Below, one piece after another: positions 52,979 through 55,364 of a stretch of DNA of 64,000 nucleotides. Every line of letters begins with the position of its first letter. Position 1 is the stretch's first letter. Location: the NCBI RefSeq assembly GCF_030013205.1, contig NZ_CP122648.1; one strand, given 5' to 3'. The position numbers and the translations under genes were made by a program. This stretch comes from Escherichia coli. GTDB taxonomy: Bacteria > Pseudomonadota > Gammaproteobacteria > Enterobacterales > Enterobacteriaceae. A model generated the notes under the pieces. That model did no database searches, was not told the DNA's origin, and saw only the letters and a program-made list of their open reading frames with translations.

Positions 52979-54529
52979 ATGCCCACTTCTGATGAAAATG
53001 CACTGCAACAACGTTGCCAGCAAATTGTCACCAGCCCAGTGCTTAGCCCGGAGCAGAAGCGCCATTTTCTGGCACTTGAAGCAGAAAACAATCTGCCTTA
53101 TCCGCAGCTGCCTGCCGAAGCCCGCCGTGCGCTGGATGAGGGTGTAATCTGCGATATGTTTGAAGGTCATGCGCCGTACAAACCGCGCTATGTCTTACCC
53201 GATTACGCCCGTTTTCTGGCGAACGGTTCCGAATGGCTGGAGCTGGAAGGCGCGAAAGATCTTGATGACGCACTCTCTCTGCTGACCATTCTTTACCACC
53301 ACGTACCGTCGGTCACATCGATGCCGGTCTACCTGGGGCAACTGGATGCGTTGTTGCAACCGTATGTTAGAATTCTAACACAAGACGAGATCGATATTCG
53401 AATAAAACGTTTCTGGCGTTACCTCGACAGAACCCTGCCAGACGCCTTTATGCACGCCAATATCGGCCCGTCTGATTCGCCCATTACCCGTGCAATCTTA
53501 CGTGCAGACGCAGAGTTGAAGCAGGTTTCACCGAACCTGACCTTTATCTACGATCCTGAAATCACCCCTGATGACCTACTGCTGGAAGTGGCGAAGAACA
53601 TCTGTGAATGTAGCAAACCGCACATCGCCAACGGTCCGGTGCATGATAAAATTTTCACAAAAGGGGGCTACGGGATTGTGAGCTGTTACAACTCACTGCC
53701 GCTGGCGGGTGGTGGCAGCACGCTGGTACGCCTTAACCTGAAAGCCATTGCCGAGCGCAGCGAATCGCTGGATGACTTCTTTACGCGCACTCTACCGCAC
53801 TACTGCCAGCAGCAGATCGCCATCATCGATGCGCGGTGTGAATTCCTCTATCAACAATCACACTTCTTTGAGAATAGCTTCCTGGTGAAAGAAGGGCTGA
53901 TTAACCCTGAACGTTTTGTGCCAATGTTTGGCATGTATGGGCTGGCGGAAGCGGTTAACTTGCTGTGTGAGAAAGAAGGGATTGCCGCGCGCTACGGTAA
54001 AGAAGCCGCCGCAAATGAAGTGGGTTATCGCATCAGCGCGCAACTGGCGGAGTTTGTCGCCAATACCCCCGTGAAATATGGCTGGCAAAAACGCGCCATG
54101 TTACACGCACAGTCGGGGATCAGTTCCGATATCGGCACCACGCCGGGCGCGCGTTTACCCTATGGCGATGAGCCAGATCCGATCCCCCATCTGCAAACTG
54201 TCGCCCCGCATCATGCTTATTATTATTCCGGCATCAGCGACATTCTGACGCTCGACGAAACCATCAAACGTAATCCGCAGGCGCTGGTACAGCTTTGCCT
54301 CGGTGCCTTTAAAGCCGGAATGCGTGAATTTACCGCCAATGTCAGCGGTAACGATCTGGTTCGCGTTACCGGTTATATGGTGCGTTTGTCGGATTTAGAA
54401 AAATATCGCGCCGAAGGTTCACGCACCAACACCACCTGGCTGGGCGAAGAAGCCGCACGCAACACTCGTATTCTGGAACGCCAGCCGCGCGTGATAAGCC
54501 ATGAACAGCAGATGCGCTTTAGTCAGTAA
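52979..54529 (+). CDS. yjjI: YjjI, putative glycyl-radical enzyme (DUF3029)
   Basis: 516 aa with C-terminal glycyl-radical-like motif [14 protein letters not shown]; followed by a radical-SAM activase gene. Confidence 0.88.
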
Positions 54530-55364
54530 GATTATCCCCTTCTCCTGCGTTGACGGGCCAGGCAGTCGTCTGGCTCTGTTTTTGCAGGGCTGCAATCTGC
54601 GCTGCAAAAACTGTCACAATCCGTGGACGATGGGGCGCTGTAATCATTGCGGAGAGTGCGTGCCACAGTGTCCGCATCAGGCGTTGCAGATTGTTGACGG
54701 CAAAGTGGTGTGGAACGCTGCGGTCTGCGAGCAGTGTGATACCTGCCTGAAGAGGTGTCCGCAACATGCCACGCCGATGGCGCAATCCATGAGCGTGGAC
54801 GAAGTGCTTAGCCATGTCCGCAAAGCGGTGCTGTTTATTGAAGGGATAACGGTAAGCGGCGGCGAAGCCACGACCCAACTGCCGTTTGTAGTGGCGCTGT
54901 TTACTGCTATCAAAAACGATCCACAACTGCGCCATCTCACCTGTCTGGTGGACAGTAACGGCATGTTGAGCGAAACCGGCTGGGAAAAATTACTCCCGGT
55001 GTGTGACGGCGCAATGCTCGATCTCAAAGCATGGGGTAGCGAATGTCATCAACAATTAACCGGACGCGATAATCAGCAGATTAAGCGCAGCATCTGTTTG
55101 CTGGCAGAGCGCGGCAAGCTGGCGGAACTGCGTTTGCTGGTAATCCCTGGCCAGGTGGATTATTTGCAACACATCGAAGAACTGGCGGCGTTTATCAAGG
55201 GACTTGGCGATGTTCCGGTACGCCTGAACGCGTTTCATGCCCACGGCGTGTATGGCGAGGCGCAAAGCTGGGCGAGCGCCACGCCGGAAGACGTTGAGCC
55301 GTTGGCTGATGCATTAAAGGTGCGCGGGGTGGGCCGGTTGATATTTCCGGCGCTGTATTTGTGA
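54501..55364 (+). CDS. yjjW: YjjW, glycyl-radical-enzyme activating radical-SAM protein
   Basis: 287 aa, Cys-rich N-terminus ([11 protein letters not shown] plus ferredoxin-like CxxCxxC clusters); overlaps yjjI end. Confidence 0.88.

Follow-up and report, generated by a model that had tools for sequence, protein, structure and literature searches.

The 64,000-nucleotide stretch of the Escherichia coli contig NZ_CP122648.1 that we analyzed (the window) carries yjjI and yjjW, two overlapping genes that almost certainly encode a glycyl radical enzyme (GRE) and its radical S-adenosylmethionine (SAM) activase. Taken as a whole, our best explanation is that this pair works in anaerobic nucleoside catabolism, where YjjI would catalyze an elimination on a ribosyl phosphate, and we give this reading a probability of roughly 0.4. 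Its parts differ in strength. A role of the pair in a nucleoside or ribosyl pathway is probable. That the reaction is a non-reductive 2-elimination on a ribosyl phosphate is a tentative proposal, to which the anatomy of the enzyme and its gene contexts point. The pair and its orphan status are already catalogued. The link with nucleoside operons across lineages and the anatomy of the promoter and operators are, as far as we found, unreported.

The protein families recognize YjjI clearly. The E. coli protein scores 731 bits against PF11230 (cut-off 23) and 786 bits against TIGR04040 (cut-off 498). At E <= 0.01 it matches no other Pfam family, and the Gly_radical and NRDD models are unmatched; some Clostridial members have precomputed NRDD and PFL-like matches. 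We read YjjI as a minimal GRE barrel because its cysteine and glycine loops align by profile with those of pyruvate formate-lyase (PFL), are conserved, and occupy the tips of hairpins. The family profile puts the YjjI segment YGVVSCYN on YAIACCVS of PFL, with S235 and C236 in the places of C418 and C419, and puts LVRVTGY on TIRVSGY, which contains G734. Among 35 YjjI sequences, C236 is invariant and is the only conserved cysteine of the family, and R462, G465 and N238 are nearly invariant. In the AlphaFold2 model (pLDDT 91.8, pTM 0.91), the hairpin of strands 231-234 and 238-241 has C236 at its tip, that of strands 460-462 and 467-469 has G465, and the two finger loops meet in the centre of a ten-stranded alpha/beta barrel. 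The initial annotation, made from the sequence alone, had this 516-residue protein end with the RVTGY motif. The motif is there (residues 462-466), and the ending is only approximate, with G465 lying 51 residues before the C terminus. In our reading, two positions of the glycine loop (L and T) do not conform to the strict PROSITE pattern.

The fold points to the anaerobic ribonucleotide reductases (RNRs). A Foldseek search with the YjjI model returned class III RNRs as all of its top 17 matches (TMq 0.65-0.77), and hhalign aligned YjjI with E. coli NrdD with a probability of 89.5% (E 2e-6, 410 columns). A sequence search of the PDB with YjjI gave nothing meaningful; the family profile reaches PFL, YbiW and NrdD, weakly. 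The family is small: 542 of 1.84 billion clusters at 50% identity reach E 1e-3, and about 25 of them are full length, all with 490-545 amino acids. The column of E. coli N253 (RLNL, alignment A1), which matches the Asn of the NrdD "SLNL" motif, is occupied by Arg, Lys or Ile in P0012, P0016, P0019, P0021 and P0026. This replacement suggests, at the level of sequence, two YjjI subfamilies, and nucleoside contexts occur in both types. The YjjI protein has been detected by proteomics.

The downstream gene had been described as a radical-SAM activase with a cysteine cluster and two ferredoxin-like clusters, and each of these elements is borne out. YjjW scores 398 bits against TIGR04041 (cut-off 250). 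Every other activase equivalog stays below its cut-off; the hydroxyproline dehydratase activase scores highest (141 vs. 425), and the NrdG models give 47-63 bits for cut-offs of 126-131. The protein has Radical_SAM, Fer4_12 and Fer4 dicluster domains, with Fer4, Fer4_7 and Fer4_9 matches over residues 42-90, and its translation also holds the GGE SAM motif. An activase adjoins yjjI in 80 of the 81 genome loci; among the metagenome loci, the 66 in which an activase was detected all have it next to yjjI. The yjjW gene is the only universal neighbour of yjjI among the gammaproteobacterial loci. Fold, loop alignment with PFL and adjacency of the activase thus uphold the assignment of the pair as GRE and activase. 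The sole genome locus without a clustered yjjW is that of Aeromonas schubertii (L080), in which a 288-amino-acid open reading frame (ORF) on the opposite strand follows yjjI. The order of the pair also varies, with a NUDIX gene between yjjI and yjjW (L139, L144), yjjW before yjjI (L095), or three ORFs between them (L151). The archaeal (L084-L086) and actinobacterial (L081-L083) activases have about 250 amino acids and no such pair of ferredoxin-like clusters. The auxiliary-cluster insert is thus missing from part of the YjjW family, namely from the activases of the most distant homologues.

Both reading frames were found where the initial annotation had placed them, and they share 29 nt. The yjjI-yjjW region is identical to that of E. 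coli strain K_EC180 over 3.2 kb (100% identity), and 5,422 of 5,426 complete E. coli genomes have the pair, which is core to the species. The view that its substrate is still unassigned also stands: the RefSeq label in K-12 is "DUF3029 domain-containing protein YjjI," NCBIfam classes TIGR04040 as "hypoth_equivalog," and we found no assignment in the openly searchable literature on yjjI. A search of the literature for a GRE that takes part in nucleoside or ribose metabolism gave no match, subscription journals being outside its scope. As far as we found, YjjI is the last GRE of E. coli K-12 without a reaction; a 2025 preprint that lists the E. coli GREs omits it.

The gene neighbourhoods carry the functional part of our reading. 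We examined 174 loci altogether. A genome scan with a 14-sequence alignment gave 81 loci, all from Gammaproteobacteria with at least 60% identity. Distant homologues (35-45% identity) came from 14 loci by exact look-up and 80 by a metagenome scan with a distant-first alignment, whose loci were ranked by similarity to a distant member and not by context. The 93 distant loci containing YjjI form 19 clades at 65% identity, and their named relatives include Clostridium species, Oceanirhabdus, Helicovermis, Velocimicrobium, Aedoeadaptatus, Ferrimonas and an actinobacterial metagenome-assembled genome. Unambiguous nucleoside genes lie within four ORFs of the pair in 8 of these 19 clades, usually co-directional and tightly spaced. 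The count rises to 11 if clades with an ABC ATPase only, a NUDIX gene or an opposite-strand PfkB are included; the "ABC_ATPase" BLAST cluster is heterogeneous, and clades resting on it alone were not counted as robust. By an informal estimate, chance alone would bring a nucleoside gene this close to a given gene (four ORFs or fewer) in only a few per cent of lineages, and the recurrence of such neighbours in differing orders is therefore far beyond chance.

These contexts are diverse. The deoCABD operon is divergent from yjjI in Enterobacteriaceae, Hafnia and Edwardsiella. In Gilliamella (11 loci) the pair ends the co-directional series deoD-nupG-add-cpdB-cdd-deoA-(ushA)-yjjI-yjjW, with DeoA directly upstream of YjjI in four loci and UshA between them in the other seven. 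Among the distant loci, one has the pair inside the operon of a Bmp-type ABC transporter, Bmp-YjjI-YjjW-ATPase-permease-permease-PsuK-PsuG, with gaps of 82 and 12 nt (L127); three have YjjI-YjjW-Bmp-ATPase-permeases (L146, L159, L161) and two Bmp-YjjI (L153, L154). Another has IUNH-ADPRGH-PfkB-DeoD-NPP-YjjI-YjjW-MFS-Bmp (L096), in which a nucleoside hydrolase (IUNH), an ADP-ribosylglycohydrolase (ADPRGH) and a phosphodiesterase/sulfatase-like gene (NPP) are among the upstream genes, all with gaps of at most 65 nt. In clade 3, a true ribokinase (331 bits, cut-off 300) is directly upstream of YjjI, with RihB-like hydrolases nearby, and in a subset of the clade 0 loci NupC and DeoD are downstream of the pair. 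The initial annotation had guessed at a nucleoside- or sugar-related reaction from a single neighbour; independent contexts in many lineages now support this guess.

Seven Shewanella loci have an ExaC-type acetaldehyde dehydrogenase directly upstream of the pair (955 bits, cut-off 900). In the Shewanella loci L065, L071, L075 and L078, the surroundings of the pair include LysR regulators, a YhdH-like Zn-dehydrogenase and a Tat-signal flavocytochrome accompanied by a small tetrahaem cytochrome, which resemble periplasmic acrylate or urocanate-type reductase modules. Two candidates were discarded. Genes downstream of the pair in some Clostridia (c28, c33, c34, c29 and c35), considered as a second nucleoside ABC system, are ruvA, ruvB, spoIID, queA and tgt by Pfam, i.e., housekeeping synteny. 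A LacI-type regulator beside the pair in Aliivibrio, considered as CytR, is GntR/IdnR-like.

What could these neighbours have in common? Their base specificities differ, some being specific for purines (DeoD, Add), others for pyrimidines (Cdd, DeoA, RihB-like) or for pseudouridine. All of them import ribosides or release or phosphorylate ribose, so the ribosyl moiety is the common denominator. We thus propose that the pair acts in the anaerobic catabolism of imported, largely RNA-derived nucleosides, and that YjjI would attack the ribosyl moiety rather than the base. The likeliest substrate would be a phosphorylated ribosyl compound: ribose-5-phosphate, ribose-1-phosphate or a nucleoside monophosphate. 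A phosphate ester is suggested by the ribokinase directly upstream in clade 3. A sugar phosphate would also suit YjjI because polar or charged side chains make up the invariant residues of its barrel strands (R70, Y71, D123, H159, N186, R251, E305, H376, Q378, R392), with three arginines among them. PflD, a GRE solved with 1,5-anhydromannitol-6-phosphate, offers a parallel.

Judging from family membership, the CX3CX2C [4Fe-4S] cluster of YjjW would, with SAM, abstract a hydrogen from Gly465 of YjjI, and the two ferredoxin-like clusters may relay electrons. The glycyl radical would pass to Cys236, across from it on the other finger loop, giving a thiyl radical that would attack the substrate. 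The reaction could be the first half of that of RNR minus the reduction: a hydrogen would be abstracted beside a hydroxyl, and E305 would assist the elimination of the 2-substituent. E305 and C236 are the sole invariant residues across the 35 YjjI sequences, and this glutamate is a candidate general base. The product would be a 2-deoxy-keto pentose phosphate, which could then be cleaved, or reduced towards deoxyribose-5-phosphate. Retro-Claisen cleavage would yield acetaldehyde and 3-phosphoglycerate, which we infer to be a mass-balanced outcome. Acetaldehyde as a downstream product is suggested by the neighbours DeoC, which makes acetaldehyde, in E. coli, and ExaC, in Shewanella. A redox-neutral elimination is likelier than a reduction because the family has a single conserved cysteine and no reductant partner.

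YjjI falls outside every characterized GRE class and resembles RNR most; it is the smallest of the full-barrel GREs and, in structure, the nearest relative of anaerobic RNR. Yet the differences from NrdD are many. Sequence identity is 13-18%. NrdD has its reducing cysteine (C175; C79 in T4) on barrel strand A, whereas YjjI has the invariant Y71 there (by hhalign, in a register of moderate confidence) and no cysteine in residues 60-80. NrdD has C-terminal zinc-ribbon cysteines by the glycine loop, whereas YjjI has no cysteine after residue 441. YjjI also lacks the ATP cone and allosteric apparatus and is about 200 residues shorter, has in E305 an invariant glutamate without counterpart in NrdD, and is served by an activase that is not NrdG-like: it belongs to the long PflA/CutD type and bears two additional ferredoxin clusters.

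The other GREs are further away. PflB/PflA and YjjI/YjjW are alike in the barrel fold, the aligned glycine loop and radical-relay cysteine, activation by FNR and the radical-SAM activase. PFL, however, has 760 amino acids and requires its Cys418-Cys419 pair, where YjjI has Ser235-Cys236, and the YjjI loci show no context related to coenzyme A or pyruvate. PflD and YbiW are E. coli GRE dehydratases that act on 1,5-anhydrohexitol-6-phosphates; they have about 765-810 amino acids, belong to a PFL-like clade and have phosphotransferase system or sugar neighbours, whereas YjjI is a separate family of 516 amino acids, with an SCYN loop that is not of the GCxE type and no significant phmmer similarity to them. 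The GRE 1,2-eliminases (glycerol and propanediol dehydratases, CutC, HypD, IslA) share the chemistry that we propose for YjjI, in which a thiyl radical takes a hydrogen from beside a hydroxyl and the neighbouring group is eliminated; their product is often an aldehyde, and their activases likewise have ferredoxin-like inserts. They differ in having their catalytic glutamate two residues past the cysteine (GCxE), where YjjI has an asparagine and its invariant glutamate is at position 305, and in being about 800 amino acids long and, in many cases, tied to microcompartments; none of the YjjI loci examined has such a link.

A bolder and rather unlikely idea is that YjjI founds a class of RNR-derived GRE lyases, which would take a free ribosyl phosphate or riboside through the first, eliminative half of ribonucleotide reduction and expel a 2-OH or a 2-O-methyl group. 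The chemistry of YjjI bears on whether RNR arose from metabolic radical enzymes or gave rise to them, and, if this bolder idea is true, YjjI could be a living intermediate between sugar-phosphate GREs and ribonucleotide reductases, and anaerobes, including E. coli, would have a radical route from RNA-derived ribosides through deoxy-keto sugars to acetaldehyde and a C3 phosphate. If the pair does act on nucleosides as predicted, the anaerobic scavenging of nucleosides and RNA in gut bacteria holds an unrecognized radical step. In practice, the contexts narrow the substrate search to a purchasable list (pentose phosphates, ribonucleosides and modified forms) and name organisms with the pair inside a nucleoside transporter operon.

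Several observations weigh against our best explanation. Nucleoside genes are missing from the surroundings of the pair in roughly half of the clades (actinobacterial, archaeal, Ferrimonas, Vibrio, Proteus and Providencia), and in the distant loci no homologue of DeoC, DeoA or DeoB turned up within 10 kb. When near ORF slots were set against far ones, Fisher's test gave p = 0.07; the comparison is crude, since operons reach into the "far" slots. We found no report of a glycyl radical on YjjI, nor of biochemistry or genetics for any member of the family. The hhalign register near the reducing cysteine of NrdD is only moderately confident. The firing of the deoP1 promoter antisense into yjjI argues against simple co-induction with deo. 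Expression biclusters put yjjI with nitrate-respiration genes, which has been read elsewhere as nitrogen metabolism (PMC3228777). Finally, ribose-5-phosphate is readily metabolized without radical chemistry, which makes an inert riboside, e.g., 2'-O-methylribose, an attractive alternative substrate.

This last point leads to the proposal that YjjI strips an inert modification off RNA-derived ribosides, e.g., by releasing methanol from 2'-O-methylribose or from the corresponding phosphate or nucleoside; such an ether cleavage is beyond the reach of hydrolases and, without O2, of oxygenases. Difficult eliminations are a typical task of GREs, the 2'-substituent is what RNR-type chemistry expels, and several neighbours would fit: a pseudouridine kinase and glycosidase in the same operon (L127), RNase T2 in the neighbourhood of seven clade 0 loci, CpdB (2',3'-cyclic nucleotides) in Gilliamella, and genes resembling ADP-ribosylglycohydrolase or NUDIX. 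Still, we hold it to be quite improbable. Its basis is context and chemical logic, no neighbour handling methanol or methyl groups was found, such substrates are far scarcer than plain ribosides, and the sequence does not separate a hydroxyl from an O-methyl leaving group. Comparably improbable is that YjjI is a true reductase, a stripped-down RNR that turns ribose-5-phosphate or ribonucleosides into the 2-deoxy form with formate or some other reductant from outside; DeoC would then use the product, and deoxyribose-5-phosphate would induce deo through DeoR. The class III RNRs as nearest solved structures and the profile homology to NrdD agree with this, as do the position of yjjI beside deoC and inside the DeoR loop, its FNR co-regulation with formate-producing metabolism and the acetaldehyde dehydrogenase neighbour in Shewanella. 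But YjjI has no conserved second cysteine, with the invariant Y71 at the position of NrdD C175 (T4 C79); no zinc ribbon, thioredoxin or other reductant partner is present in any context, and deoC is not found near the distant homologues. Moreover, nrdD mutants are defective under strict anaerobiosis, from which it follows that YjjI does not supply deoxynucleoside triphosphates.

Two further proposals leave the sugar aside. YjjI could act on the freed nucleobase or another non-sugar product of cleavage, e.g., in the anaerobic metabolism of uracil or thymine. Many of the neighbours set one of these two bases free (DeoA, Cdd, a RihB/UriH-like hydrolase, PsuG), one operon has an Amidohydro_1 gene (L146), and the Rut pathway of E. 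coli needs O2. We consider this very unlikely, since the neighbours serve purines (DeoD, Add) as well as pyrimidines and share no single base, ribose-binding enzymes are the nearest to YjjI in fold, and the arginine-rich polar interior fits a phosphate ester better than a neutral heterocycle; we also know of no GRE that opens a heteroaromatic ring. It is more unlikely still that the nucleoside neighbourhood is incidental and that YjjI serves anaerobic respiration or nitrogen metabolism (nitrate, nitrite, nitric oxide). The cross-species bicluster of yjjI with nar genes (narG), which has FNR- and NarL-like motifs (PMC3228777), the presence of yjjI in the Gene Ontology "anaerobic respiration" gene sets and the several clades without nearby nucleoside genes would be in line with it. 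However, shared control by FNR explains the co-expression, genes of respiration or of the nitrogen cycle are conserved neighbours in none of the 174 loci, and the nucleoside link recurs in distant lineages with different gene orders, which chance synteny does not explain.

Anaerobic control of yjjI is documented. Myers et al. (PMC3688515) place yjjI among the operons directly activated by FNR, from FNR chromatin immunoprecipitation (ChIP) and expression, and we place their ChIP peak about 39 bp upstream of the yjjI ATG. The gene is also FNR-activated in arrays and induced anaerobically in Yersinia intermedia. The upstream sequence suggests how. An alignment of the region upstream of yjjI from 14 enterobacterial genera shows that 13 of them keep GGATCAAA (52912-52919) without change or almost so, always about 21 bp before a candidate -10 hexamer, which the same 13 genera retain. 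This conserved FNR half-site and hexamer would account for the anaerobic induction. Transcription is predicted to start near 52952-52953, which would give the promoter a geometry of the FNR class II type, with only the right half-site and a centre near -41.5. The half-site emerged from the alignment and not from consensus scans. The FNR consensus scan of the window and of the upstream regions of the 81 genome loci (at most two mismatches) had its best E. coli match at 52800-52813, which is the known CRP-1 site of deoP2.

The regulatory elements of deo and yjjI are interlaced. The initial annotation had placed the pair divergent from the promoter of deoCABD. This holds for deoP2, which is intergenic; deoP1 and the DeoR operators O1 and OE are inside the yjjI coding sequence (CDS). 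The true start of deoC is at 52721, 257 bp from yjjI. The yjjI promoter is back to back with deoP2, and by its predicted position it is inside the DeoR O2-O1 loop. O1 and O2 are spaced by exactly 599 bp. O1 is kept at +380 to +386, at the same codon position, in all 16 tested genomes where deo is adjacent (Escherichia to Edwardsiella) and is absent in all five tested genomes without deo beside yjjI. Since its conservation tracks deo adjacency, this stretch of yjjI is dual-coding. The centre of the probable OE is 279 bp from that of O1, a spacing that fits the OE of the deo literature. Transcription from deoP1 is antisense to the first ~390 nt of yjjI, and the two promoters are convergent over about 420 bp. 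From this layout, coupling between deo and yjjI and interference between them are both plausible.

A CRP ChIP-seq peak in the yjjI/deoC intergenic region has been assigned to the CRP-1 sequence (PMC4287617). The CRP-2 site lies about 93.5 bp from the deoP2 start and from the predicted yjjI start alike. By this geometry, one CRP dimer at CRP-2, and hence CytR, might serve both divergent promoters. The arrangement of FNR and CRP sites at ansB resembles that of the yjjI promoter. The coordinates of all these features are collected in Table 1.

Table 1. Features of the yjjI-yjjW locus, in window coordinates
Feature	Position	Strand	Remarks
DeoR operator O2 at deoP2	52766..52781	.	vs. TGTTAGAAnnCTAACA: 1 mismatch (+), 0 (-); intergenic
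CRP-1 site of deoP2	52799-52814		53 bp from CRP-2
CRP-2 site of deoP2 (TGCGATCTGGTTCAAA)	52852..52867	.	from sequence and conservation
Candidate FNR site CGCATcaggATCAA	52905..52918	+	only right half-site conserved
Candidate -10 hexamer TACAAT of yjjI promoter	52940..52945	+	TACAnT kept in 13/14 genera
yjjI CDS	52979..54529	+	516 aa; YjjI-family GRE, minimal 10-stranded barrel
DeoR operator O1	53365..53380	.	perfect palindrome, 0 mismatches; overlaps deoP1 -10; yjjI codons 129-134 (VRILT)
Probable DeoR operator OE (TGTGAAAATTTTATCA)	53644..53659	-	12/16 matches; inside yjjI
Cys finger loop S235-C236-Y237-N238 of YjjI	53681..53692	+	C236, predicted thiyl-radical cysteine
E305 codon of YjjI	53891..53893	+	invariant in alignments A1 and A2
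Glycine loop R462-V-T-G465-Y of YjjI	54362..54376	+	G465, predicted radical site
yjjW CDS	54501..55364	+	287 aa; radical-SAM activase, YjjW family
C31-x3-C35-x2-C38 (CNLRCKNC) codons of YjjW	54591..54614	+	radical-SAM [4Fe-4S] motif
Two ferredoxin-like CxxCxxCxxxC motifs, C47-C57 and C76-C86, of YjjW	54639..54761	+	auxiliary-cluster insert
REP/BIME array between yjjW and yjjV	55376..55863	.	4.8 copies of a 101-bp unit; Tandem Repeats Finder 93% matches

Downstream of yjjW, the array of repetitive extragenic palindromes (REP/BIME) has four Rfam naRNA4 matches above the gathering score and is probably the 3' boundary or a stabilizer of the yjjIW transcript. Its copy number varies, with some E. 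coli strains aligning only in part there. On the other side of the pair, two ORFs on the plus strand, one of 258 amino acids (51972-52748) antisense to deoC and one of 299 amino acids (50442-51341) antisense to deoA, are shadow ORFs opposite real genes and not genes themselves.

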